Shown here one piece after another: positions 1,099-32,000 of a stretch of DNA of 32,000 nt. This DNA is from Promethearchaeum syntrophicum (lineage in GTDB: Archaea > Asgardarchaeota > Lokiarchaeia > Sigyniarchaeales > Promethearchaeaceae). The stretch lies in contig NZ_CP042905.2 of assembly GCF_008000775.2 (NCBI RefSeq), positions 3,150,001 through 3,182,000 of the forward strand. Reading direction: 5' to 3'. The first letter of the stretch is position 1. Each line of letters opens with the position of its first letter. Below the pieces are notes generated by a model. The model worked only from the letters and a program-made list of their open reading frames with translations. It did no database searches and had not been told where the DNA came from. Made by a program: the position numbers and the translations under genes.

Positions 1099-4000
1099 TT
1101 AGAGTTGTTTTCCGCAGAAAAAGCAATACCGCTCATGAGATGAAGGTTGAGTCGCCTTACAATAAGGACAAACTTGAACTGCTTTTTTAGGAGATCTTCT
1201 CAAATGGGATCGAGGTTGGATGTTTGGATGTTCACTTTTAGTTTCATTTTCTGATACCCTCAATTTCATTGGTCCAGGTTTGGTATGTTTTACAATCATT
1301 GTGCCTTCAATATCGGCCAGTTTCTCTTTTCTGGGCGAGATTTTCTTAATTGGGGGTTCGATTTTTTTTATTTTTTTCTTTTTCTGCCTTTCTATGGAAT
1401 CAGGAGAGGATTGCATATCACATATTTTAAGTAAATCATTAATTTCAGCCACAGTCATCCCTACACCTAAATATTCAGCCCGGTTTCGTGCTGCAAATAA
1501 AGATGATTTCGCTTCATTAGTTTTTTTATTTTCAACTAAAGTCACTAAACTAGGAATTTTACCTTTGAGTTTTTCAATTTCTGATTCAATTTCTGTTTCT
1601 ATAGATTTATGTAAGTTATTCCAATGGGAAGTTATATTATCGGCAATTTTTTCGAATTTTTCCTTTCCTCTTGGTAAATTTGGCTTAACCAAAGAAATGT
1701 TATTTCGCGCTTCAATTATTCTACCTGATTTAAGATCATTTTCAATCCCATCCAAATTTTCAAGGATAGGTAAATTTATTGAGCAAAAATTAATGTAATG
1801 TTTTATTTCGGGAACTATCAGTGTTACATTAAGATTTTGAGCGGTAGTTAAGTTTTCTGTTAGAGAATCAATAGCTTTCTTGAACTTTAAAGTCATTACT
1901 TCGGTTTTAATTATTTTATCAAAAGCATTTTTTACTTTGGATTCTCTTTTATTACTCTCGGATTTCACTCTGTTATGTAAATTCTTAATTTTTGCTTTTA
2001 CATGATCAAAGGATTTCTCTTCTTTCTCACATGTATCGAACAATTTATAAATTGCCTCAACTGTGGTGACAAAATCGATCAAATTTTCATAATTTTCATG
2101 AAGTTGATTGTATTCTGAAACAAATTCAGTATTCTTTGAACATTTTCGGTTTAAATTTTCAATACTTACTATTAAATCATCAAGACCGAGATCCTTTGCC
2201 CTAAGCGTGTATTTTTTGAGATGATCCTGAGCTTCTGAGAAATCAAAAGTCTGGTTTATTTTTTCCTCAAGTTTATTAAATTCTCCATGTAATTTTGAAG
2301 TCATTTCTCCGATTTTAGTTTTTAAATCATTCAATTCATTTTCAAGGTCTTTTTTCAATGCAGAACTATAGATCTTTGGTGTTTTTTCTAAAGCAGAATT
2401 CATTTTTTCTAATAGTGTAGTATACTCATTTTCACCAATTTTTAGTTGATTTGCTGCAATTTTATTCTGAATTTCCTTTTGAATTTTTACACCCTCAAGA
2501 TTTAATTCAATTTTCTGAGTGATAGGTTCTAGCAAACTGCTGAATTCTTTTAAACCAGTCTCGCTTATTCGATTTTTAATCTCACTAATTGCATTTTGAG
2601 CACTAATTAAATTATTTTTCTCATCAATTATAGCTTCAATATCTTCAATCTTTTGAATTATTGTCGTTTTTTCTTTAGAAATTTGATTATCTGTTTCTTT
2701 TTCTAATTCAGAGTATTTATTTTTAATTATAGTGAAGTAAATTTCAGATTTTTCTGAAATATTTGAGTTTATTTTTACCAATTCCAATTTAACAGAATGA
2801 ATTTTCGCTTCTTTCAACGATTTTGTTAATTGATTGAAAAGATTAAAAATTTGAAGATTTAAATCTAACTCAGCAGAATATTTGTCGAGAATAACAATGA
2901 TTGATGGATATCCATTTAGATCAGCAAAATTACGTTTAGCAGCCAACTCCTTTTTAGCTACCTCAAAATCGAGAGATTCTGATAAAATAATCCATATTTT
3001 TTCAATTTCTTCCTTAAGTTCAGCTTCTTCCTTTCTTCTTGCTTCTGCAATCTTATCAATTAAAGTGTCGATTTGCTCTTTATTGCTTTTTACCATTTCG
3101 ATGGAAGTATATTTTGTAGAAATATGTTGTTTAAGACTTTCTAACTTATTGTGAGCATTGAAATATGATTTTGATTCAAAAATTCCATTTATTGCTTGAA
3201 CATCATTATAAATTTGCTCATTGATTTGACAGATATTGATTACAATATTTACAGAATTTACAAGACTAACTAGACCGTTTTTTGTTAGATCTTCCTTAAG
3301 TTTTACTAAATTCTTTCTTGCTATGCTATATTGGAATTCTTCCATTAAATCCATTGATTTTTTAGTTATTAAATCAGTATCGCTTGTCCATTTTTCAATC
3401 ATTGAATCTATTTTTTTTAAGAAGATATAATATTCTTCCTGCTTGTCTTGATATATTATTTTTAAATCATTTTCTTTTAGAATGGCTTCTGCGGATGCTA
3501 GAAAATCTTTAGCTTGTAGAAGATCAGTAGTATTTTTTGCAGATGATAAGAGATCATCAAATTTCTTATTAATTTTGTGAATATTTCGTGTTTCGCTCAA
3601 ATCTTTTGCCTTCAATTTCAAATTTTTACCTAAGGACTTTTTCAAATCTGTTAAACCGTGTTCAGTCATTGAATTTTGGTAAATTTTATGAACTTCTTCA
3701 ATTTTTGATATAATTTCAGGATGAGCGGCTCGTTGTTTTTGAATATCATTTAAAAGCGAGGTTAGAGAATAAAATTTAAGCTCAAGATCTTCAGAAGTGA
3801 TACCAGATGGAACAGGAACCGCAAATCTTTCTAAATTCCTCTGAGCATGAACCGAGTTCTCTGTTTTCTTCTTTAAAAATTTTATATTATTGATTAATTC
3901 GGTGATTCCACTAACCTGAACTTTTGATTTTATACTTTCCAATTCATTTGGTATCTTAGCGAAATCTTTTGAATTAAATGAATTTTCAACCCTTTCAATT

Positions 4001-4236
4001 TCTCCTAATAATTCTTCTGTTGTTTTCCTTATTGTTTCTTCATTTGCTTCAATTAAGGCTTTTAACTGAGTTTTTAAATCGGGATTAAAGGTTTGGGGTT
4101 GTTTATTAAGCATTTCTGTACAAGTATTAAGAATATCTCTTGTTTTCATAAGATTTTTTGAATTCTTAGCGTTTAGCAGTTTTTTATTATACTTTTCAAG
4201 ATTGAAAGGACTCTTAACACTATTATCTATATCCAT
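1099..4236 (-). CDS. Giant coiled-coil/helical-repeat protein with basic linker and C-terminal zinc ribbon
   Basis: 1045-aa uninterrupted ORF, Lys/Glu/Asn/Leu/Ile-rich. A motif xxxA[KQR]xx[LI]-x10-G[LVY] recurs at residues 303, 424, 543, 666, 785 and 906. Lys-rich tract RQKKKKIKKIEPPIKKISPRKEK. C-terminal CPYC-x13-CFFC zinc ribbon. No Walker A motif. Confidence 0.8.
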   Translation of the reverse strand: MDIDNSVKSPFNLEKYNKKLLNAKNSKNLMKTRDILNTCTEMLNKQPQTFNPDLKTQLKALIEANEETIRKTTEELLGEIERVENSFNSKDFAKIPNELESIKSKVQVSGITELINNIKFLKKKTENSVHAQRNLERFAVPVPSGITSEDLELKFYSLTSLLNDIQKQRAAHPEIISKIEEVHKIYQNSMTEHGLTDLKKSLGKNLKLKAKDLSETRNIHKINKKFDDLLSSAKNTTDLLQAKDFLASAEAILKENDLKIIYQDKQEEYYIFLKKIDSMIEKWTSDTDLITKKSMDLMEEFQYSIARKNLVKLKEDLTKNGLVSLVNSVNIVINICQINEQIYNDVQAINGIFESKSYFNAHNKLESLKQHISTKYTSIEMVKSNKEQIDTLIDKIAEARRKEEAELKEEIEKIWIILSESLDFEVAKKELAAKRNFADLNGYPSIIVILDKYSAELDLNLQIFNLFNQLTKSLKEAKIHSVKLELVKINSNISEKSEIYFTIIKNKYSELEKETDNQISKEKTTIIQKIEDIEAIIDEKNNLISAQNAISEIKNRISETGLKEFSSLLEPITQKIELNLEGVKIQKEIQNKIAANQLKIGENEYTTLLEKMNSALEKTPKIYSSALKKDLENELNDLKTKIGEMTSKLHGEFNKLEEKINQTFDFSEAQDHLKKYTLRAKDLGLDDLIVSIENLNRKCSKNTEFVSEYNQLHENYENLIDFVTTVEAIYKLFDTCEKEEKSFDHVKAKIKNLHNRVKSESNKRESKVKNAFDKIIKTEVMTLKFKKAIDSLTENLTTAQNLNVTLIVPEIKHYINFCSINLPILENLDGIENDLKSGRIIEARNNISLVKPNLPRGKEKFEKIADNITSHWNNLHKSIETEIESEIEKLKGKIPSLVTLVENKKTNEAKSSLFAARNRAEYLGVGMTVAEINDLLKICDMQSSPDSIERQKKKKIKKIEPPIKKISPRKEKLADIEGTMIVKHTKPGPMKLRVSENETKSEHPNIQPRSHLRRSPKKAVQVCPYCKATQPSSHERYCFFCGKQL

Positions 4237-15380: not shown

Positions 15381-16175
15381 TTAATTATAAAGAATATCAG
15401 AAATTAGTTGCTGGAGATGGGAATTGAAAGTATGATGATCTGCCCAGAACATGCAATGTCCATGTCCCTCCATAAAGATTGTGTCAATTTTGGGTTTGAA
15501 TTTTTCTCGATGTTTTTTCTTAGGTAGCGATAACCCTGCTATGATAGCTTTTATGGGATATCGCGCTTCCTCAATGTATGGTATAACATTCCAATAGCAG
15601 AGTTCCTCAAATTCACTCAAAAAGACCGCATTTTTAATGATCGGATACTGCAAAAATTCCTTCTGTAGTTGCTCTGAGACCTTAATTCCAGAATTCATAT
15701 GGGTTTTATACAAGTTAACAATTTTTTTGTGTGTATTTTCTCTGAAATCTTTCATGATCAGTTCGGTGGCTTCTACAGTATTCTTGGTATAGAGACTTCC
15801 TTGAATCGGAAAGAAAGTATCAATACCGATTATACCTATGATCCTATCTTTAAGGATTCTTGCAGCTTCAAGAATTATTGGTCCACCCATTGACCAGCCA
15901 ATAAGGATAACTCTTTGAAGATCCTCTGCTTGTATAACAGCTGCGATATCTTCTCCAAATGCTTGCATAGTGAATTTCAATCTGTCTGTGGTTGCAGATT
16001 TTCCATGCCCACCTATATCGGGGAGTACTAATTTGTATTGTTTAGCAAATGAATGTTGCAATTTCCAGTGTTCAAGGATACCTCCAGCGCCAGAGACAAA
16101 GCAGAGTGTGATATCTCCTTTTCCGTGTACCTCGTAGTAGATGTCCGTTCCATCTTTTGATTTGCATTTATTCAT
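15381..16175 (-). CDS. Alpha/beta-fold hydrolase (intact paralog, copy 1)
   Basis: 264-aa ORF (795 nt). Has the GWSMGG nucleophile elbow (GxSxG), an HGKS oxyanion region and a C-terminal GHGHCMFW with the catalytic His. Near-identical at nucleotide level to 17875-18209. Confidence 0.85.
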   Translation of the reverse strand: MNKCKSKDGTDIYYEVHGKGDITLCFVSGAGGILEHWKLQHSFAKQYKLVLPDIGGHGKSATTDRLKFTMQAFGEDIAAVIQAEDLQRVILIGWSMGGPIILEAARILKDRIIGIIGIDTFFPIQGSLYTKNTVEATELIMKDFRENTHKKIVNLYKTHMNSGIKVSEQLQKEFLQYPIIKNAVFLSEFEELCYWNVIPYIEEARYPIKAIIAGLSLPKKKHREKFKPKIDTIFMEGHGHCMFWADHHTFNSHLQQLISDILYN

Positions 16176-16476: not shown

Positions 16477-16547
16477 TTATTTATTAGAAAGAATATCTGA
16501 GATCATCTGCTGGAGATTTGTATTGAAGGTCTCATGGGTGTGGTCAT
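16477..16547 (-). pseudogene. 3'-terminal remnant of a third alpha/beta-hydrolase paralog
   Basis: The minus strand translates ...DHTHETFNTNLQQMISDILSNK*, matching the last ~20 codons of copies 1 and 2 (HTFNSHLQQLISDILYN / HETFNTHLQQMISDILND). It abuts the stop codon of the 232-aa gene. Confidence 0.55.
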
Positions 16548-17242
16548 CGTGTAAATCCAATTAAGAATGCAAATCCAATGATTATTAAAAATAATATTTC
16601 TGAAATAATCAGAATAAGAGTAATTTGTTTAAATTTTTTTTTTTGTGTCTCAATGTTTTTAGATGAATACCATAACAATCCCAATATCAAGTATAGAAAG
16701 AAGCAAGCACTAAATCCCAATATAATATAGCTCAGATATCCATAGTATTCTGGGATTTCACCTATTAATTCAAAACTCAATAAGAGAGAACTAATTGCAG
16801 TTAAGGCCATTACTGTAAAAAATTTAACGAGTCGTCCTTCAATAACAACATGTAAATGGGCTTCGATATCCTTTAATGATGGAACGTCTATATGTGACTT
16901 CTTCTCAATTATTTCATAGATTTTTTGAAACCGTTTTTCATTAATTTTACTTAATCTAATTATGATATGGTTCTTCGAATCCAATTTTCCAATAAACTTG
17001 ATTTCATATGTCTGATTTAGGTTTTTGCTAATATTCACATCAGAAATGGTATCAAAGTTTAAAACATATGAGTTATCTAAACATGTGAGAAGCTTATTAT
17101 TTAAAAAAAATGGTTTATTTCTACCAATAACGAGAAATGATAAAAATTTTGGAATAATAATCCCATTTGTCGTAAATAATAGATAATCAATTGTATTATG
17201 ATAATCTACTTCTAATTTATATGATATATCTGAATTTTCCAT
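16544..17242 (-). CDS. Hypothetical protein: soluble beta-rich N-terminal domain plus C-terminal 3-TM region
   Basis: 232-aa ORF with ATG start. Residues ~140-232 form three hydrophobic helices. It sits between hydrolase copies. No family recognised. Confidence 0.6.
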   Translation of the reverse strand: MENSDISYKLEVDYHNTIDYLLFTTNGIIIPKFLSFLVIGRNKPFFLNNKLLTCLDNSYVLNFDTISDVNISKNLNQTYEIKFIGKLDSKNHIIIRLSKINEKRFQKIYEIIEKKSHIDVPSLKDIEAHLHVVIEGRLVKFFTVMALTAISSLLLSFELIGEIPEYYGYLSYIILGFSACFFLYLILGLLWYSSKNIETQKKKFKQITLILIISEILFLIIIGFAFLIGFTR

Positions 17243-17422: not shown

Positions 17423-18209
17423 CTAATCATTAAGAATATCAGAGATCATCTGCTGGAGATGAGTATTGAAGGTTTCGTGATCTGCCCAGAGCATGCAATG
17501 ACCGTGCCCCTCCATGACAATAATATCGATTTTTGGTTTGAAGCTCTCTCTTTGTGCTTCTTCAAGTGCAGACATGCCTGCTATGATTGCTTTTATTGGA
17601 TGTTGTGGGTCCTCAAGATGAGGCATATCATTCCAATTACAGAGATCCTCCAACTCACTTAAAAATATCTCACTTTTGATGACCGGATATTGCAGAAATT
17701 CCTTCTGTAGTTGCTCTGATTCCAGTATTCATATGATATTTAAACAGGTTAACAATTTTCTTTGGGGTATCTTCCCTGAAATCTTTCATGATCAGTTTGG
17801 TGGCTTCTTCACTATTCTTGGTATAGAGACTTCCTTGAATAGGAAAGAATGTATCAATGCCGATTATACCTATGATCCTATCTTTAAGGATTCTTGCAGC
17901 TTCAAGAATTATTGGTCCACCCATTGACCAACCAATAAGGATAACTCTTTGAAGATCCTCTGCTTGTATAACAGCTGCGATATCTTCTCCAAATGCTTGC
18001 ATAGTGAATTTCAATCTCTCTGTATTTGCAGATTTTCCATGCCCAGCTATGTCGGGGAGCACTAATTTATATTGTTTAGCAAATGAATGTTGCAATTTCC
18101 AGTGTTCAAGGATCCCTCCAGCGCCAGAGACAAAGCAGAGTGTGATATCTCCCTCTCCGTATACCTCGTAGTAGATGTCCGTTCCATCTTTCGATTTGCA
18201 TTTATTCAT
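17423..18209 (-). pseudogene. Alpha/beta-fold hydrolase, frameshifted paralog (copy 2)
   Basis: 787 nt (not a multiple of 3) versus 795 nt for copy 1. An 8-nt deletion at 17719/17720 relative to copy 1 (15678-15685) splits it into track ORFs 17670-18320 (true ATG at 18209) and 17423-17653. Confidence 0.8.
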
Positions 18210-18316
18210 ATTTTGTGTTAAAATTTTAACAATATTAAATTTGATAAGGAAATAATTGTTCAAGGAATAAATTTGAAAAAAAATGAAACTGTTCATCAAT
18301 TTCATCAATAGAGATT

Positions 18317-19312
18317 TCATATAATTATGTAAATGTTATTTCTATCAAGAATACAAGCAAGCAACCAAATAATTAACATATTTACGACCCCAACTATTAA
18401 AATTATACCCCAACCTATTGATTCTGGTATTAATAACAAAGTGAACCCGTATAGAATTCCATGAAAAACATATAAGGCAAACGCATTTTTTCCTTGAGGT
18501 TGAAATATTCTGCTTTTTTTGTTAGTTGACTCATTATTCTCATAAATATCCCATAATATACAAAATAAGATACCTCCAAGGCCGATAGAAAGCGTAATAT
18601 AAGAAATGTTAACTCGCTGTTTACTAATTCCAAAAATGAGAGCTAAAATAACCCCAACTGTAGAGAAAAGAATACTGAACAGAATTATTTTTTTAAGTTC
18701 CTTTTTTTCAAATAATTCTCCAATCACAGTTGCCATTAACATCAAAATTGTCCATCCAAATCCGCCAATGAATCCACCGTGAGAATCTGTTAGAATCATT
18801 TCTGATAAAACAATTGTGTTCTCATCAATAATTAACTCAACAATGCTAAAAAATTGATAAAAAATTAGAAGGTAGATGGAAATGATAAAGCGAACAATAA
18901 TTCGAAAATTAATAAAAAGAAGTGTAAAAATTCCCGCAAATCCTATTGCTTGCAGAACTCCCCATGAAAAAGAGATACCGCTAGGTGAATATGATAAAGC
19001 ACCAAGAAATCCAAATCCAATAAACGCCCCATATCTACGTAAAAATTGTAAATAAGTATTTAATGAACCAAATTTCTCCTTTCTCCTTTTAAATGATTTA
19101 TGATAAGTAAGCGAGATTGTAAAAATAAAAAATGACGCAACTAAATCGACGTAGGTTAATCCAAAATCAGATGTATGTTTGTTCCATGACGGAGTATTAT
19201 TAAAGATACCAATAATATTTACAAAAACCATCGCACTTATGGTTATTCCACGAAACACATCAATAGCAAGCGATCTCTCTACTTTTAAAACCGGCTCTGA
19301 ATTTCTTTCCAT
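18317..19312 (-). CDS. Polytopic membrane acyltransferase-like protein (DUF1624 / heparan-alpha-glucosaminide N-acetyltransferase-like)
   Basis: 331-aa ORF with ~9-10 TM helices. The N-terminal signature RSLAIDVFRGITISAMVFVN is typical of the HGSNAT/DUF1624 family as I recall it. Confidence 0.65.
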   Translation of the reverse strand: MERNSEPVLKVERSLAIDVFRGITISAMVFVNIIGIFNNTPSWNKHTSDFGLTYVDLVASFFIFTISLTYHKSFKRRKEKFGSLNTYLQFLRRYGAFIGFGFLGALSYSPSGISFSWGVLQAIGFAGIFTLLFINFRIIVRFIISIYLLIFYQFFSIVELIIDENTIVLSEMILTDSHGGFIGGFGWTILMLMATVIGELFEKKELKKIILFSILFSTVGVILALIFGISKQRVNISYITLSIGLGGILFCILWDIYENNESTNKKSRIFQPQGKNAFALYVFHGILYGFTLLLIPESIGWGIILIVGVVNMLIIWLLACILDRNNIYIII

Positions 19313-25484: not shown

Positions 25485-26063
25485 TTACTGGAAAAAAAGG
25501 TGTTCTATTAAAATTTTAATTCCTAAAGAAATAAGAACTATCCCACCAAAAATCTCTGCTTTAGCTTGAAACAAAGAACCAAGTTTGTTTCCGAAAGAAA
25601 ATCCTCCTAAGGAAAATAAGAAGGTTCCAAGAAATATGATAAAGATTGTAAGTGGGATATTTAAATCTGTCGCAATTAAGCTGATTCCAGCAGCAAGTGC
25701 ATCAATACTCGTTGCGATTCCCATCGTAATAAGAACCCAGATTGTTAATTTCCTATCCTCACATTCTACTTTATTATTATGTTTAATTCCTTCTGTTATC
25801 ATTTTACTCCCAATAAACGCCAATAATCCAAAAGCGATCCAATGATCGATAAACGCTATTTGTTCAGCAAACAATGTTCCTGTAAAATAACCAATAATTG
25901 GGGTTGTAGCTTGGATAATTGCAAAAATAAATGCCACCTTCAAAGCCATTGATAATTTGTTTTCTACTTTTTGAAGGCCACACGAAACTGAAAGTGCCAG
26001 ACTATCCATACTTAATCCAATGCTAAGCATGATCATAGAAAAAAGAGCAGAAAGAGTTACCAT
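25485..26063 (-). CDS. mntP: Manganese efflux pump MntP (DUF204 repeat)
   Basis: 192-aa 6-TM ORF with the duplicated DUF204 signatures LSMDSLALSVSCG and TSIDALAAGISL. Confidence 0.85.
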   Translation of the reverse strand: MVTLSALFSMIMLSIGLSMDSLALSVSCGLQKVENKLSMALKVAFIFAIIQATTPIIGYFTGTLFAEQIAFIDHWIAFGLLAFIGSKMITEGIKHNNKVECEDRKLTIWVLITMGIATSIDALAAGISLIATDLNIPLTIFIIFLGTFLFSLGGFSFGNKLGSLFQAKAEIFGGIVLISLGIKILIEHLFFQ

Positions 26064-26264
26064 ATTTTATTTCTCACAATAAGACAATGTATTTTAAATG
26101 AAAAAGTTAATTATTATTTAAAGAACTTTCTTAAATATGCCCAAACCTTATAATCGTGGGATATTGAATAAAATTGGGAGAAATAGTGGGGCCGGATAAA
26201 GAATATATTGCTATAGAGACGCAATAATAATTATTTTCAGGATTCCTTGAAGAGTTATCAACGG

Positions 26265-26282
26265 AGTGATTTTTAAATCACT
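26265..26282 (-). terminator. Perfect 8-bp hairpin AGTGATTT-TT-AAATCACT just downstream of the nuclease gene stop
   Basis: The inverted repeat starts 6 nt after the stop codon (26288-26290) and is flanked by T-rich sequence. It could be a terminator or a palindromic binding site. Confidence 0.25.
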
Positions 26283-26287
26283 TTATT

Positions 26288-27535
26288 TTATTGATATCTT
26301 GAAAAAATTTGGTCAAAAGTCCATAGATTAATAAAAGGATCCATTAGTTTTCTATATATTTCAAATGTAGAAACCTTATTAGTTGAAGCGGCTTCTAAAT
26401 TCCCGATTATTAAATATGGTTTTTTAGGTTCCTCTAGTTTTTTTTTCAATGTTGCATTTAGTACAATCCTATAATAGCAATATTTATTATGATAATTCTT
26501 CAGCTGAACACAAGAAGATGCTAAATCAGGAGATATTGTGCAAATATTTGTTCTATATTCATCATCATCTATAAATTCTTTAAATGGTGTTTTAATTTCT
26601 ATTAACACACCATAAAAATCATCAATAAAGAATAAATCAACAAATTTCCCTCCTTTACTAAGAGAATTTACAACAGCAACTGGTGCTTCTGCTTTTAAGA
26701 GAAGATCAATTTGAAAAACACTTGAAAGTATATCTGGATGACATTTGAAGAAATACTGAAAATAACCTTCCCATTTTCTTGTGTGTTGTAATTCTTTAAA
26801 TTTTACATCATCATTTTCTTTAAAAAAATTCCAATAATTCAGAAAATCAATTTTCTTCAAATTTTGTGTTCTAGTCAATAAAATTCTATCATTTAGAATA
26901 TTCTCTAAATGAATTATGTAATTTGGATTATTAATATTAATTTGAGTGTAATTATTCCACTCAACCTCATTTTCAGTTTCTGATATGATAACACAATTTT
27001 TTTCTGATATTTTTGTAAAAGTCCCATTTTCGATAAAATTTTTGAAGGCTGAATCTATTAAGAAAAATTGATATTTGTTATATTCTTCGGAATTAGCTTT
27101 GGATGTTGTAATTCGTTCAATTTCATATATTCCTGATTTTGTATCTAAAATTTTTTCCAATTTGATGATTGGAGTTTTTAAATCAGAAATTACATTAATC
27201 CTAAAGGGAATTTCTTCAAGTTCAATTGATTCATCATATAAAATCTTATTTTTATTTTTCTGAGTGTTATTTTGAAATTTTATTCTAATTTTTTTTTTTC
27301 TAAATTCTTGGGAATTTTGAATAATTCTCAAGCATGAGCAATATGTTTTGTCCTTTTTAGTTGAAAATAGAGTTTGATCTGAATAAATAATTAACAATTC
27401 TTCTCCTAAATTTTTTTTTATCATACTTTTATGATTGGTTTGAAAACCAAATAATTCTGGAACATATATCCAATTTTTATCAATTTCAAATGAAATGTTT
27501 GGGAATCTCGGATTTAAATCTTTGATTTTAACCAT
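26288..27535 (-). CDS. Shedu-like protein: novel N-terminal domain plus C-terminal DUF4263-type PD-(D/E)xK (RecB/NucS-like) nuclease
   Basis: 415-aa ORF. Residues ~245-415 carry KWEGYFQYFFKCHPDIL, VD(300)LFFID, LIE(313)IK(315) and SCVQ(344)LKNY(348), with a terminal PYLIIGN...INLWTFDQIF. These are D / ExK / QxxxY motifs in the SduA-like order. The N-terminal 240 aa are unrecognised. Confidence 0.65.
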   Translation of the reverse strand: MVKIKDLNPRFPNISFEIDKNWIYVPELFGFQTNHKSMIKKNLGEELLIIYSDQTLFSTKKDKTYCSCLRIIQNSQEFRKKKIRIKFQNNTQKNKNKILYDESIELEEIPFRINVISDLKTPIIKLEKILDTKSGIYEIERITTSKANSEEYNKYQFFLIDSAFKNFIENGTFTKISEKNCVIISETENEVEWNNYTQININNPNYIIHLENILNDRILLTRTQNLKKIDFLNYWNFFKENDDVKFKELQHTRKWEGYFQYFFKCHPDILSSVFQIDLLLKAEAPVAVVNSLSKGGKFVDLFFIDDFYGVLIEIKTPFKEFIDDDEYRTNICTISPDLASSCVQLKNYHNKYCYYRIVLNATLKKKLEEPKKPYLIIGNLEAASTNKVSTFEIYRKLMDPFINLWTFDQIFSRYQ

Positions 27536-27538
27536 TTA

Positions 27539-27546
27539 ATCACCTC
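27539..27546 (-). promoter_or_regulatory. Shine-Dalgarno GAGGTGAT for the nuclease gene, embedded in the end of the upstream ORF
   Basis: The minus strand reads ...GCGAGGTGATTAAATG. The SD spans the last codon and TGA stop (27540-27542) of the 899-aa ORF, 3 nt before the ATG at 27535. Confidence 0.5.
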
Positions 27547-30239
27547 GCAATTCCAAATTCGGCATCATCTTTTTTAGCGCGTAAAATTTCTGCCGAAAAT
27601 TTTTCCTCAATGATTTCAATTAATTTAGTTGAATTATCAAAAATTTCGCTTCTACTCCATTCTTGAAACCGCTTAAGCCGATTTTCATAGACCACATAAC
27701 TTTTTCCAGGGGAACTCACCATAACACCTGAATTAAAACTATTATAAATTCGATATGCAATATTTTCTAAACTTTGGTAATATTTCCATAAAATGGCGAT
27801 AATTGGTCGACTTTCTTCTTGGTATATATCATCTCCAATAATATTAATTAATATAAGAGGGATTTCTTGCTCATTCAATTGGCATAATTCGAAAATTTGT
27901 TCTTGTGATAAAATTAAGAGAAATTTGAGATCTAATTTGTATTCCAAAAAATTTGCCATCAGATACTCATCTCGTTTTTCTTCAAAGAGATCATGAATTT
28001 TTTTAATTGTATCTTGTGGGTTCAATTTATAACATTCGCGATAAAAGGGGGAGAGTCCAATCCGTTTAAAATCCGAGGGAAAATTGGAATGATATATATT
28101 ATTTCCTATCGCACTCAAAAATTTTGGAATATAAGTTGAATCTTGTCGCATGAAAAGACAGGTTAACTTAAACCAATCTTCAGAAAAGGATTTGTTAAAA
28201 GATTTTTGAGATAATTTGAAATCAATGAGCAATTTAAATAGATCTTCTTTGATAGAATCAAGTTTACTAGTATATTTTTTTAAATAATCATAAAGATGGA
28301 AAAAACCTGACGGAAATTCTCTCCATATATCAAGATCAGGATTATTTATGAAATAGAATGAAAATAATCGTTCAAAATATTCTGGAGATAGTGCTTGTTC
28401 ATTGAAATAATTTCCAAAATCTTTATAATCATTATAAGTAATCATTTCATTTTCTTTTAAAACCTCAAGATGTTTTATCCCCCATTCATTTAAGGGATAA
28501 GAAGCCCTTATCAATTTAAGGTTATTTGGTTTAAAATTTTCTGGAGTAAAAAAAGAATCTAACAGGGATTGCCATTGAGGTTTACTCTCTCTTTTCATAT
28601 TATTAAAAAACCCAAATAAAAAGTCATATGGAAAATCAGAAGTTTTAGGTTCATATTGCTTAATAATTTCTACTTCCCATGGATTGAAATCATCAGTAAT
28701 TTCAAGTTGGTTTGCCATCTGCTCTCCTATTAAGGATATAAAGTCATGTTTTATCTTGATGAGAAAAGAGACTTTATTTGATATACTATCTTCGAATAAG
28801 AGAATTTGATTTGCGAAATCCGTGGCCAAAGGCTGTTTTTCTTCTCTTTTATATAAATAATACGGTTTTTGAATCTCCTTTTTGATTAAATCATATATAT
28901 TGTAAACTGCTTCAAAGAGTTGAATGAATGATTCAATTTCTGTTTTATAAGGTGATTCATTTTTTTTAATATAATTGCGCAAAAATTGAAGGAGTTTAAA
29001 TTTACGGGAGGGATTTTTTTTCAGATCTCCTTTCCATAATGTGGTGAGAGTAATCCAACCTGGTTCTAAGCAAATTATCTTCCAAAATTTATCAAGGGTT
29101 ATGAAAAATATTTTTTCTTCCAATTCGTGGTAATAAGTTTTAATTAATTCAAGACCAAATAATTCATATTCTTCATCTCTTCGTTTCTCTTTCTGTTCTT
29201 TAGTTAAATTTCCTTCATTTAATAAATAAATTTTGACGTGATCTCCATAAGAAACGGAATCTTCTGCTTGAGTACGAAATATATTGTTGATAATCGAGGG
29301 TATATAAGTCTTGATTCGCTTTTCTTCCGTTTTCAATTTATGTATTAAATATTCTTTCCGTTGTTTCAATGAGATATTAAAGCGGGGAATATTTTTGCAG
29401 AAATAATAGGAGAATAATCCTGTAGCATTATTTATATAATTTTCATTTTCTGCCTCACTCAGAAGTAGAATGATATCCATTGTTTTTTCAAATAAGCTTG
29501 GATTTTTTATGGTGAGTTTAAAAATACTCCGAAAATTACTGCGGTTTGTTAGATTTTTTAGGGGAAACTCCTTTAATTGATTTTTATCTTCAAATAATTT
29601 CTGAATATGAATAATGCAAGTTGAATTTATGATGGTACTTAATCGAAAAAGTAATTCCGAATTTATTGGCTCGTTAAGCGATTTCAAAGAATTCAATTCT
29701 GGTAAATTGAGAGTCTTAGCGGAAATTTCTTTAATTTTTAATATTTTTTTCTTATCATTTTGAATAAAGGCTGTTATTTTAGGAATATACAGCATTTTAA
29801 AAAAAGAATTAAGAAATTCAAGATTCTGAAGGAAAATGAGTTCCTGAGCAAAATCGGAGATTAGATCAAAATTAGTAAATAAAATTTCTGCTTGTAAGTA
29901 TTCATCTTTTATTTTAATATATCTACCTTTTTCTTCAAGTATTTCTTCATGGATTAAAATTTCTACGATTTTTTGAAGTTTATCAAGTTCAATCACAACT
30001 TCATTTGCTTTTTCAAATTGTATATCTTTCTTATCAAAGATATGAAATAATTTTGGAAAATCTTGGCGATTTTGTTCAAATGGATATTGGAATCCTTTAT
30101 CTATTCCTATTTTATAATAACCTTGATCCCAACCAATTTCGGAAAAAAAGGCTAAGGTTGTTAAAAATTGTATGATTAAATCTGAATCGACTAAATTTTG
30201 TTGAGCAATCTCTTGTATTTTTTCTAAATAATCATCCAT
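27540..30239 (-). CDS. Large (899 aa) all-alpha/helical-repeat protein of unknown function, upstream partner of the Shedu-like nuclease
   Basis: Uninterrupted 2.7-kb ORF with ATG start preceded by GAGGA (30246-30250). Composition is Lys/Glu/Phe/Ile/Leu/Asn/Tyr-rich. No Walker A/B, nuclease, protease or TM motif recognised. Confidence 0.8.
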   Translation of the reverse strand: MDDYLEKIQEIAQQNLVDSDLIIQFLTTLAFFSEIGWDQGYYKIGIDKGFQYPFEQNRQDFPKLFHIFDKKDIQFEKANEVVIELDKLQKIVEILIHEEILEEKGRYIKIKDEYLQAEILFTNFDLISDFAQELIFLQNLEFLNSFFKMLYIPKITAFIQNDKKKILKIKEISAKTLNLPELNSLKSLNEPINSELLFRLSTIINSTCIIHIQKLFEDKNQLKEFPLKNLTNRSNFRSIFKLTIKNPSLFEKTMDIILLLSEAENENYINNATGLFSYYFCKNIPRFNISLKQRKEYLIHKLKTEEKRIKTYIPSIINNIFRTQAEDSVSYGDHVKIYLLNEGNLTKEQKEKRRDEEYELFGLELIKTYYHELEEKIFFITLDKFWKIICLEPGWITLTTLWKGDLKKNPSRKFKLLQFLRNYIKKNESPYKTEIESFIQLFEAVYNIYDLIKKEIQKPYYLYKREEKQPLATDFANQILLFEDSISNKVSFLIKIKHDFISLIGEQMANQLEITDDFNPWEVEIIKQYEPKTSDFPYDFLFGFFNNMKRESKPQWQSLLDSFFTPENFKPNNLKLIRASYPLNEWGIKHLEVLKENEMITYNDYKDFGNYFNEQALSPEYFERLFSFYFINNPDLDIWREFPSGFFHLYDYLKKYTSKLDSIKEDLFKLLIDFKLSQKSFNKSFSEDWFKLTCLFMRQDSTYIPKFLSAIGNNIYHSNFPSDFKRIGLSPFYRECYKLNPQDTIKKIHDLFEEKRDEYLMANFLEYKLDLKFLLILSQEQIFELCQLNEQEIPLILINIIGDDIYQEESRPIIAILWKYYQSLENIAYRIYNSFNSGVMVSSPGKSYVVYENRLKRFQEWSRSEIFDNSTKLIEIIEEKFSAEILRAKKDDAEFGIAR

Positions 30240-30575
30240 GTAAAATCCTCAAAGTGAGAAAAATACCGACTAAATGAAAAAAGTCGTATTTTGTTTTACT
30301 TGAATAATAATGGCTTTTATCCCTTAATAAAATTTTAGACCGTATTATTATTGCTTGATCCCTCCCTTTTTTATCTTGTGATATATATTTTCTTCGTTTA
30401 CAATTGAATGGTTTTGTTTCTTTTTATTTTGGCATATTTTTCATTTTTCTTCAATTTTTAAAATATATCACCATAAATAATAGCAGAAGGTTGTAAGAAA
30501 AATTCTTTTTTTATCTCATATCCCTTTTTGATTGCTGAATTTAAGAAAAAATTATTTCTCCTTTATTAAAATCAC

Positions 30576-30585
30576 ATATATATAA
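30576..30585 (+). promoter_or_regulatory. TATA-box-like ATATATATAA ~25 nt upstream of the 30605 ATG
   Basis: The spacing fits an archaeal promoter driving a leaderless or very short-leader transcript. No SD-like motif lies before the ATG. Confidence 0.3.
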
Positions 30586-30604
30586 TTACAAATTAAGTAA
30601 AAAC

Positions 30605-31675
30605 ATGAGAAAAAAAAATGAATATATGAAATTACAGAAATCTTTCAAAAATAAGAAATTATTTATCATCCAATTTTCAACCACTGATATTTTTCAAAAA
30701 CCGTCTATAGCAACACACTTTTTTGCATTAGATTATTTTAAAGACACTGAAGTTTCAATCGAATATACCTCAAATAATTTCTTTTATCAAATTGAAAAGT
30801 TCTTTAAGAAACATAAAAAATATCACTTCGCTTTCTGGAATTATAATCATATTTATAAGATTTCATTGCTAATCCCTGGAATTTCCCTTACGGAAAAAAA
30901 GGTAATAGAAAGAAACATTATTGATCTAGACGATGCGTTTGAGTTTTTTTCTGAAGAAAAGAAAACTCGATACTTAAAACGCCAGAATCAAAGTATCGAT
31001 AAAAGATATTATTTTAGTCTTTTGAATGGATATAATATTGATGAATCTTTTTGGAAAACTGGTATTGTCGAAAAGGATTTGCGGGATGCAATAATTTTGA
31101 GTAATTCTTGTAGATTAAAATGCAAAGTAATGAGCTTTTTAATAACCAAAATGAAGGATGGAAGAGTAAAATTTGATCATAATGAAGAATTCATGAGAAA
31201 AACAATAAAATTCATGGAATTGCAGAAAATTTCATCTGATCAGAGTACAAATACAATTAATTTTTACAACAACATATGGAATCTAATAAATAGAGATATT
31301 AGAATTAAATGCCAGACAAAATTTCATGATGGATATTTCGCGGATTCAGTGGAAGCAGCATTCAAAGAAATAAATACGAGAGTAAAAACATATTATCATG
31401 ATTTAAAAGGAGAATGGGGTGATGGGGCTTCCTTAATGCGGAATGCATTTTCAGGCATAGATCCTGTTATATCTTGGTTAGATCAAAAGGACCCATCATC
31501 ATCCAATATCCAAAAAGGGTTTGAACATATTTTTGCAGGAGCAATGATAGGAATTCGAAATCCTAAAGCCCATGCAAATTTGATCATCACTAAGGATCGA
31601 GCAATTCATTTTTTGTTTCTTGCTAGTTTACTTATGGATAAAATAGATGAGGCTAATATTAAAACCACCTCTTGA
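30605..31675 (+). CDS. TIGR02391 (Hypoth_Ymh) HEPN-superfamily protein with unrecognised ~220-aa N-terminal domain
   Basis: Residues ~225-350 (FHDGYFADSVEAAFKEINTRV...GASLMRNAFSG...QKGFEHIFAGAMIGIR(318)NPKAH(323)...AIHFLFLASLLMDKID) match the TIGR02391/PF09509 consensus as I recall it, including the Rx4H HEPN motif. Confidence 0.8.
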   Translation: MRKKNEYMKLQKSFKNKKLFIIQFSTTDIFQKPSIATHFFALDYFKDTEVSIEYTSNNFFYQIEKFFKKHKKYHFAFWNYNHIYKISLLIPGISLTEKKVIERNIIDLDDAFEFFSEEKKTRYLKRQNQSIDKRYYFSLLNGYNIDESFWKTGIVEKDLRDAIILSNSCRLKCKVMSFLITKMKDGRVKFDHNEEFMRKTIKFMELQKISSDQSTNTINFYNNIWNLINRDIRIKCQTKFHDGYFADSVEAAFKEINTRVKTYYHDLKGEWGDGASLMRNAFSGIDPVISWLDQKDPSSSNIQKGFEHIFAGAMIGIRNPKAHANLIITKDRAIHFLFLASLLMDKIDEANIKTTS

Positions 31676-31746: not shown

Positions 31747-32000
31747 TCAAGTTTTTATTGTTTGAAATAATATTTGGTATAATCCGGAAATTTGTGAAAT
31801 AATTACACTCACAATTAATATTTCATCAGAAATTTCTTCTATATTTCCCAATTTTCCTTGAATTTGCTTTTGATTATTAATATCAATTAATAACCTCTGA
31901 TTTTCATGAATTATGATATTGGAATGGGCAAGTGCATGACGTATTTTTGCATAGATTTCCATTAATTGATTTTTTGTGGTCGGTACAATATCAAATTTAA
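31747..32000 (-). CDS. C-terminal part of an Rx4H (HEPN-like) protein, 5' end beyond the window
   Basis: The reading frame stays open from 31962 to the window edge (KFDIVPTTKNQLMEIYAKIRHALAHSN...). The IRHALAH motif (Rx4H) sits ~55 aa from the C-terminus, as in HEPN domains. Convergent with the TIGR02391 gene. Confidence 0.45.
   Translation of the reverse strand, partial: KFDIVPTTKNQLMEIYAKIRHALAHSNIIIHENQRLLIDINNQKQIQGKLGNIEEISDEILIVSVIISQISGLYQILFQTIKT

Follow-up and report, generated by a model that had tools for sequence, protein, structure and literature searches.

A receptor-derived sensor gene paired with a Shedu nuclease gene: a candidate antiviral module in the Asgard archaeon Promethearchaeum syntrophicum

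Avs receptors and Shedu nucleases have both been well studied, as self-contained proteins. Promethearchaeum syntrophicum MK-D1 belongs to the phylum Promethearchaeota (Asgard/Loki). In a 32-kb stretch of its chromosome, which was analysed as a whole and is called the window below, parts of both families lie in two adjacent genes. The upstream gene encodes an 899-amino-acid (aa) protein, here termed the partner, and the downstream gene a 415-aa Shedu-type nuclease. An initial annotation of this DNA had drawn attention to the pair, and rechecking the open reading frames (ORFs) returned exactly the same coordinates, strands and lengths:

27540..30239, minus strand: partner gene DSAG12_03370 (899 aa), from the ORF and 100% identity to DSAG12_03370
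26288..27535, minus strand: Shedu-type nuclease gene DSAG12_03369 (415 aa), from the ORF and 100% identity to DSAG12_03369

We propose, with a probability of roughly 0.6, that the locus is a co-transcribed antiviral module composed of an Avs8A-derived sensor and a Shedu effector.

Avs8 is the new name of PD-lambda-4. Avs8A is a STAND NTPase in which an Mrr nuclease, a P-loop NTPase and a repeat sensor are fused; the sensor binds the HK97-fold major capsid protein, and the DNase is thereby activated. Binding of the lambda capsid protein gpE followed by DNA degradation has been described (bioRxiv 10.1101/2025.07.02.662641), and Avs8 is a STAND family that senses major capsid proteins (bioRxiv 10.64898/2026.01.04.697583). 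The partner resembles Avs8A in being the first gene of a putative two-gene operon, in its collinearity from the winged helix to the C-terminus, and in carrying the motif AENENxxNNATG. In addition, full-length Avs8A-like genes (1416-1428 aa, with an Mrr-like N-terminus) are also present in Promethearchaeota. The partner differs in having neither effector nor NTPase, and hence is not a STAND protein; its relatives of the long form described below carry an HNH domain rather than Mrr, and the second gene encodes a Shedu nuclease, not a small Avs8B-like ORF.

Classical Shedu (SduA; B. cereus B4264, E. coli) consists of one gene, and sensing or regulation falls to the N-terminal domain of its product. 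In B. cereus Shedu the N-terminal region keeps the nuclease inactive, and its removal activates the nuclease. A survey of 7,687 Shedu proteins reported only restriction-modification, BREX, transposon and prophage neighbourhoods; its 47 archaeal cases (Euryarchaeota, DPANN) included no Asgard case, and no dedicated partner was described. A census (PMC11291487) had, however, already recorded Shedu among Asgard archaea. The MK-D1 nuclease shares with these proteins the C-terminal nuclease domain of ~170 aa, by sequence and by fold, placed behind a variable N-terminal region and encoded in a defence island. It differs from them in its private N-terminal module of 245 aa and in strict linkage to an upstream gene for a ~100-kDa protein.

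The initial annotation took Shedu to be a single-gene system, a view that has become outdated. KELShedu of E. coli, published in 2025, is a two-component Shedu comprising a 12.6-kDa DNA-binding protein, KELA, and a DUF4263 nuclease (PMC12577705). It is bicistronic with a very short gap, like the MK-D1 pair, and its upstream non-nuclease protein is needed with the DUF4263 nuclease, as we propose here. KELA binds double-stranded DNA and has ~110 aa, whereas the partner is a receptor-derived solenoid of 899 aa and ~100 kDa, and the reported stimulus of KELShedu is NTP depletion rather than a protein ligand. A precedent on the sensor side is given by the Avs7 sensor, which is also part of Dsr1 and other defence proteins that have no NTPase. 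There an Avs-type capsid sensor works without a STAND NTPase, attached to a different effector; however, a single polypeptide contains both the sensor and its effector (SIR2, HEPN), which are not encoded separately, and the sensor family is Avs7, not Avs8.

With KELShedu, a two-component Shedu is already on record; as to the pairing of Shedu with Avs8, in a literature search of incomplete coverage on Shedu with Avs8, or DUF4263 with STAND, we found no paper describing it. As read here the locus is a hybrid of an Avs8 sensor and a Shedu effector whose parts are known. Its distinctive points are the NTPase-less, putatively trans-acting sensor and the natural series of long and short forms, and it is not a categorically new system.

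The nuclease and its receptor-derived partner

The features of the nuclease that carry its assignment are as follows:

26288..26800, minus strand: PD-(D/E)xK nuclease domain of the SduA_C/DUF4263 type, aa 246-415 and stop codon (PF14082, PADLOC, phmmer, Foldseek)
26768-26770, minus strand: E256 (motif I), invariant across 12 Shedu relatives
26636-26638, minus strand: D300, aligned to B. cereus SduA D249
26591..26599, minus strand: motif III, E313-I-K315 (alignment and translation check)
26504-26506, minus strand: Q344, aligned to B. cereus SduA Q295
26801..27535, minus strand: subfamily-specific N-terminal domain, aa 1-245, found in six partner-linked relatives

On the combined evidence of profiles and modelled fold, the last ~170 aa of this protein are a genuine Shedu nuclease domain. 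The PF14082 (SduA_C) profile matches isolated aa 246-415 with 42.6 bits (E 9.3e-11; gathering score 27) over profile positions 6-158 of 159 (153/159). The best PADLOC match of this domain is the SduA model PDLC00406 (E 3.5e-12), and phmmer against the PDB finds B. cereus SduA (8ti8) at E 3.8e-9. The domain is modelled confidently by AlphaFold2 (AF2), with pLDDT of 60-91. When the model is compared with the PDB by Foldseek, the best nine structures are all Shedu, from B. cereus and E. coli (8ti9, E 4e-8, TM 0.68), and the next match has an E-value of only 0.2. Thus, profile and fold both agree with the DUF4263 assignment made initially, and the UniRef label of the protein is already DUF4263 domain-containing protein. 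The full-length protein gives no Pfam match even at E<=1. This is an artefact of the HMMER filters on a protein rich in lysine, isoleucine and asparagine; because the filters hide the domain in the full-length protein, the precomputed annotation was empty. Automated Pfam annotation may overlook such domains in AT-rich Asgard genomes.

All of the PD-(D/E)xK motifs I-IV are intact. E256, D300, E313/K315 and Q344 align with E204, D249, E264/K266 and Q295 of B. cereus SduA, where D249 and E264 are required by mutation and K266 and Q295 are conserved motif residues. The positions first given for D300, E313, K315, Q344 and Y348 are all correct on translation.

The N-terminal 245 aa have no Pfam or PADLOC match, in keeping with the earlier description of this part as unrecognisable. 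In the AF2 model the first 228 aa have pLDDT <50 and no fold can be assigned. Conservation of the domain is confined to the six partner-linked relatives, and we propose that it serves regulation and docking. Derivation of this domain from the small ORFs in the Avs8B position of full-length Asgard Avs8A-like loci was considered and rejected (HMM, or hidden Markov model, score ~0 bits; hhalign 0.4%).

Taken whole or as four segments, the partner has no sequence match in Pfam, NCBIfam, PADLOC or the PDB, and its link to Avs8A emerged solely by way of intermediates and profiles. When 1.84 billion representative proteins were searched with a profile, just 13 relatives were returned. The longer of these (1183-1421 aa) are recognised by PADLOC as PD-Lambda-4_A (P0009, 1e-30; P0008, 1e-16; P0006, 1e-10; P0005, 9e-7), and bacterial relatives from GTDB genomes match PD-Lambda-4_A end to end (3e-72). 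A custom HMM built from 10 PD-lambda-4_A-like proteins matches the partner with 60.1 bits (E 5.8e-15) in two collinear pieces, aa 24-324 on HMM positions 413-675 and aa 471-890 on positions 832-1255. As a control, 300 locally shuffled copies and the reversed partner reach at most 3.3 bits. Comparison with an Avs8A-like profile by hhalign gives a probability of 99.1% (E 6.5e-19, 772 columns), with partner aa 23-895 lying collinearly on positions 406-1220 of 1222. The partner is therefore more than a protein that matches nothing: custom HMM and hhalign assign it to the winged-helix and sensor portion of an Avs8A/PD-lambda-4_A-type STAND receptor. Two of its features can be located:

29910..30239, minus strand: winged-helix-like N-terminal domain, partner aa 1-110 (hmmalign, AF2)
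29418..29453, minus strand: AENENYINNATG motif, partner aa 263-274 (family alignment, translation verified)

The Avs8A-like consensus runs from an Mrr-like PD-(D/E)xK N-terminus through Walker A (235-242), Walker B (~287-294), the GxP motif of the helical domain (~367) and a winged helix (~400-480) to the sensor with AENENWANNATG. Homology in the partner begins at HMM position ~413, past Walker A, Walker B and GxP. In the hmmalign alignment FLTTLAFFSEIGW and ILEEKGRYIKI of the partner fall on LRALSLFTKVGF and VIERRGRYVVV of the consensus, and the AF2 secondary structure of this region consists of helices followed by a beta-hairpin at ~100-109. The best-conserved motif of the whole Avs8A-like family is AENENYINNATG, near-invariant in the 10-sequence alignment; bacterial relatives carry it as AENENWANNATG, and the family pattern is AENENxxNNATG. 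It sits in a low-confidence loop of the partner model, which overall (pLDDT 78.9) shows a small winged-helix-like N-terminal domain and then an all-alpha solenoid. Foldseek of this model against the PDB returns only generic HEAT/importin-like solenoids (TM ~0.2), uninformative beyond the alpha-solenoid itself.

By these alignments the partner is the winged-helix and helical sensor two-thirds of Avs8A/PD-lambda-4_A, without effector and NTPase. Of the features that define Avs8A, it has neither the STAND P-loop NTPase nor an N-terminal effector (an Mrr-type nuclease) in the same polypeptide. A motif scan of the partner finds no Walker A/B, DExH, HxH, Rx4H or CxxC motif, and tblastn finds no HNH or NTPase remnants anywhere in the window, nor near the ortholog in a second locus (L001). 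Judged from sequence, the MK-D1 protein is an N-terminally reduced form, because closer-to-ancestral relatives carry HNH and P-loop domains upstream of the same sensor. The statement in the initial annotation that the partner lacks any NTPase or enzymatic motif therefore holds for the MK-D1 protein but not for its family.

The two genes are tightly joined. The partner TGA (27540-27542) is followed by a gap of 4 nt and the nuclease ATG at 27535, the junction sequence being gcGAGGTGATtaaATG:

27539..27546, minus strand: Shine-Dalgarno-like GAGGTGAT, covering the last codon and stop of the partner, 3 nt before the nuclease ATG

The sequence GAGGTGAT occurs a single time in the window, at this junction. 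About 0.5 occurrences would be expected by chance in the window, and it is meaningful because of its position 3 nt before a start codon. Shine-Dalgarno-like sequences are absent upstream of most other window genes. The gap and the Shine-Dalgarno sequence spanning last codon and stop are as first described; from the uniqueness of GAGGTGAT at the junction and its absence before most other genes we reasonably infer that the pair is co-transcribed with translational coupling. Upstream extension of the partner ORF is impossible because of an in-frame TGA 4 codons 5' of its ATG, and GAGGA lies 7 nt before that ATG. The presumed promoter region of the operon lies beyond:

30240..30604, no strand assigned: AT-rich intergenic region of 365 bp, between the partner gene and a divergent HEPN gene

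A scan for sigma-70 promoters and terminators gave background level, and the sigma-70 consensus is irrelevant for an archaeon. An inverted repeat, AGTGAT-tt aaaa-ATCACT, lies at 26265-26282 (minus strand), 6 nt past the nuclease stop; it could form a hairpin at the end of the transcript, though no T-run follows it.

Co-conservation and long and short forms

The only close homolog of the partner is P0004 (885 aa, 43% identity). Downstream of its gene, across a gap of 2 nt, L001 has a 414-aa SduA_C gene whose product is 32% identical to the MK-D1 nuclease across the full length. In a metagenome-assembled genome of Promethearchaeota, the gene for P0005 (1183 aa, 27% identical to the partner) has an overlapping 431-aa SduA_C gene directly downstream. 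Searching from the nuclease side with a profile of three nucleases gave three more full-length relatives (P0017, P0018 and P0019), each immediately preceded on its own strand by a partner-family gene, overlapping or at a gap of 16-17 nt (hmmsearch 1e-36 to 1e-65). A partner-family gene thus lies directly upstream of the nuclease in 6/6 retrievable members of this Shedu subfamily, with gaps <=17 nt or overlaps, and the survey for co-conservation came out in favour of a dedicated pair. More distant Shedu proteins (P0002) are without both the N-terminal domain and the partner. For the same pairs of loci the partner identities are 43/27/76% and the nuclease identities 34/29/79%, a parallel divergence as expected for co-inherited genes.

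Two architectures are found. The long form, in four loci, has an HNH nuclease, P-loop, winged helix and sensor in a protein of ~1185 aa, followed by Shedu; it is seen in full in L004/L005 and L036, and is cut by contig ends in L033 and L034 of the same clade. The short form, in MK-D1 and L001/L002, has winged helix and sensor only, again followed by Shedu. The short-form orthologs are full-length ORFs of 885-899 aa with the same start point and 43% identity. A third Asgard group (1416-1428 aa) keeps the Mrr-like N-terminus and is followed by one or two small ORFs, not by Shedu. Scanning metagenomes with the nuclease alignment gave no match, and with the partner alignment only further full-length loci (1428 aa plus a small ORF). 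Viral contigs gave no match with either alignment, so there is no sign of the pair riding on viruses.

The small ORFs that follow the full-length Asgard Avs8A-like genes are coupled to them, encode 155-188 aa and have an LFDTGNE motif in common:

L006 10318-10809; L008 5742-6209; L009 12190-12756; L013 4412-4900: LFDTGNE small ORFs
L026 5750-6241 and 6207-6752; L028 2837-3355 and 3389-3877: LFDTGNE small ORFs as tandem paralogs in two loci

Occupying the Avs8B position, they have no Pfam match and match no PADLOC model at E<=1, PD-Lambda-4_B included.

The P-loop domains of the Asgard Avs8A-like proteins (P0005, L036 259-3819, P0006, P0008 and P0009) have a non-canonical Walker A, GxGK[KR][ST] with one GIGRKT, compared with GxGK[ST]R in bacterial relatives. 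The same domains lack the acidic Walker B pair, having LILLETS, IIFINV or LIILNCS against the bacterial vvDEC. By these motifs hydrolysis by the Asgard NTPase may be compromised, and the complete loss of the domain from the short forms would agree with this. Separately, the HNH domain of P0005 (aa 4-141; L004 10010-10423) matches the N-terminal part of the PADLOC SduA model PDLC00406 (E 7e-14). As the C-terminal domain of the MK-D1 nuclease has its best PADLOC match in this same model, some Shedu proteins carry such an HNH domain fused directly to DUF4263, a fusion that hints at shared ancestry of the parts.

Genomic setting

Two further genes lie beyond the partner in the window:

30605-31675, plus strand: HEPN gene (356 aa) with C-terminal Hypoth_Ymh (Pfam E 7e-21, TIGR02391 7e-16)
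31747-32000, continuing into L037 11143-13154, minus strand: 71-aa ORF with RHALAH (Rx4H), the 3' end of a 338-aa gene that leaves the window

The 356-aa protein also matches PADLOC PD-Lambda-3_B (1e-11), and its N-terminal ~230 aa have no match. Its gene is transcribed away from that of the partner and may serve defence separately. The 338-aa gene has the Rx4H motif only and no HMM support as HEPN, and so just one of the HEPN genes that had been placed alongside the pair is upheld. Next comes an FRG-domain gene of 330 aa (weak match), and an FRG gene also adjoins the orthologous pair in L001 (14644-15783). With these genes the MK-D1 island extends from about 26.2 kb to 34.8 kb in window coordinates. 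Further out, one flank has MntP and the other has methyltransferase and IF-2 genes. The GC content is 25-28% over window positions 26001-31000, compared with 31-33% in most of the window (up to 38%), a drop in keeping with horizontal acquisition of the island. Neither a tRNA gene nor an integrase was seen at the island edges.

Elsewhere the neighbours are different. In L001 they are DUF4411 with Peptidase_M78, an AAA_15/21 ATPase, a 1268-aa SIR2_2 protein, FRG and HNH. In L004 an AAA_15/21+SLFN_AlbA_2 gene is adjacent, and the pair is set between housekeeping genes. The contexts are non-syntenic between genomes and rich in defence-type genes, which counts in favour of the initial reading.

Further from the island, two alpha/beta-hydrolase genes, at 15381-16175 and 17670-18320 (both minus strand), have near-identical Pfam match patterns with a 37-residue offset and look like paralogs; they are separated by an unannotated 232-aa ORF (16544-17242). 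A 1045-aa ORF at 1099-4236 (minus strand) has no Pfam match at E<=0.001.

Proposed mechanism, rival explanations and meaning

Demonstrated in this analysis are both homologies, the domain boundaries, the intact motifs, the tight coupling of the genes, their strict co-occurrence and the defence-island contexts, and it is on these that we base the module. We suggest that the sensor protein would hold, or be bound by, the Shedu nuclease through the N-terminal domain of the latter, leaving the nuclease autoinhibited in the manner of the N-terminal domains of B. cereus Shedu. A viral protein, possibly the major capsid protein by analogy with Avs8, would bind the solenoid. Binding would alter the complex such that Shedu nuclease domains can come together as an active, DNA-cutting oligomer. 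On the side of the nuclease, contact with the partner would likely be made by its private N-terminal domain, which replaces the usual sensor domains of Shedu. More tentatively, and with odds somewhat below even, an Avs-type sensor without its STAND NTPase acts here in trans, switching on Shedu via this adaptor domain, the long forms (HNH, degenerate P-loop and sensor, plus Shedu) and the short forms (sensor only, plus Shedu) in Promethearchaeota being successive steps by which the effector role passes from a fused nuclease to a partner gene. If true, such a trans-acting route from an NTPase-less sensor to Shedu would be one not described for Avs or Shedu.

A number of points weigh against the module. 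The physical interaction of partner and nuclease is something that we infer, together with the identity of the trigger, the direction of regulation, the DNA target and the activity of the system. STAND receptors signal via NTPase-driven oligomerisation, and the partner lacks the domain required. Its identity to bacterial Avs8A is ~15%, because of which the Avs8 trigger cannot be transferred to it, and the curated PADLOC PD-Lambda-4_A models miss it at E<=1 for the whole protein and E<=10 for segments. The six loci amount to three deep lineages, namely the window, L001 and four loci that form one clade at 74-84% identity, and only two of the six have an assignment to Promethearchaeota. Long-form sensor proteins come with an intact-looking HNH effector of their own, and the Shedu gene may there be an add-on rather than the effector. 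Shedu is normally autonomous, and the N-terminal domain of the MK-D1 nuclease could itself be a sensor. Finally, E. coli can do without Avs8B, the small gene in second place in the Avs8 operon, and because of this a partnership in an operon does not guarantee joint function.

The last two points also speak for the idea that the genes are independent neighbours, an autonomous single-gene Shedu beside the decaying, non-functional remnant of an Avs8-like receptor. Shedu is mostly a stand-alone gene, the partner is truncated at its N-terminus in comparison with longer relatives, and the non-canonical Walker A and B of the Asgard relatives suggest that erosion had begun already. However, the truncated ORF is intact in two lineages only 43% identical, beginning at the same point in each, and there is no NTPase debris upstream. 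The strict linkage of the genes and the restriction of the nuclease N-terminal domain to partnered genes also disfavour mere adjacency, as does the parallel divergence of the two proteins, and the linkage in all six cases argues against a self-sufficient Shedu at this locus. We consider independent neighbours improbable.

Somewhat better placed, although still unlikely, is a role for the partner as inhibitor or guard. It would sequester the nuclease in the manner of a toxin-antitoxin pair until infection titrates, displaces or destabilises it and so frees the nuclease. A nuclease gene placed downstream and translationally coupled would never be expressed without the partner, a layout typical of toxic effectors that are kept in check; toxicity is known for Shedu nuclease domains released from N-terminal regulation, and the partner has no oligomerisation motor. 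Against this, Avs-type sensors are known as activators upon ligand binding, and the nuclease keeps an N-terminal domain of the kind that already provides autoinhibition in other Shedu. Guard and activator use the same parts with opposite sign of regulation, and the present data do not separate them. A role in housekeeping or DNA repair, with a NucS/EndoMS-like nuclease and a scaffold protein, is by far the least probable reading, even though, outside its own family, the Shedu fold is structurally nearest to EndoMS and one pair (L004) lies among housekeeping genes. The family is extremely rare and patchy, with its 13 partner relatives among 1.84 billion representatives, its members occupy non-syntenic positions next to SIR2, AAA_15/21, HEPN and HNH genes, and both halves come from antiviral families validated by experiment.

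Present defence annotation tools would call only a solitary Shedu at this locus and miss the partner. Natural variants with and without the NTPase could show what the NTPase contributes to signal transmission. If the sensor-effector module is real, a STAND receptor can lose its ATPase switch and yet keep its virus-sensing arm, with the effector to which the arm is coupled coming from a different gene, and Shedu nucleases can hand sensing to a dedicated partner. It would also mean that such shuffling of modules happens in Asgard archaea. Among prokaryotes these are the nearest relatives of eukaryotes, in which NLR-type immunity follows the same receptor logic.

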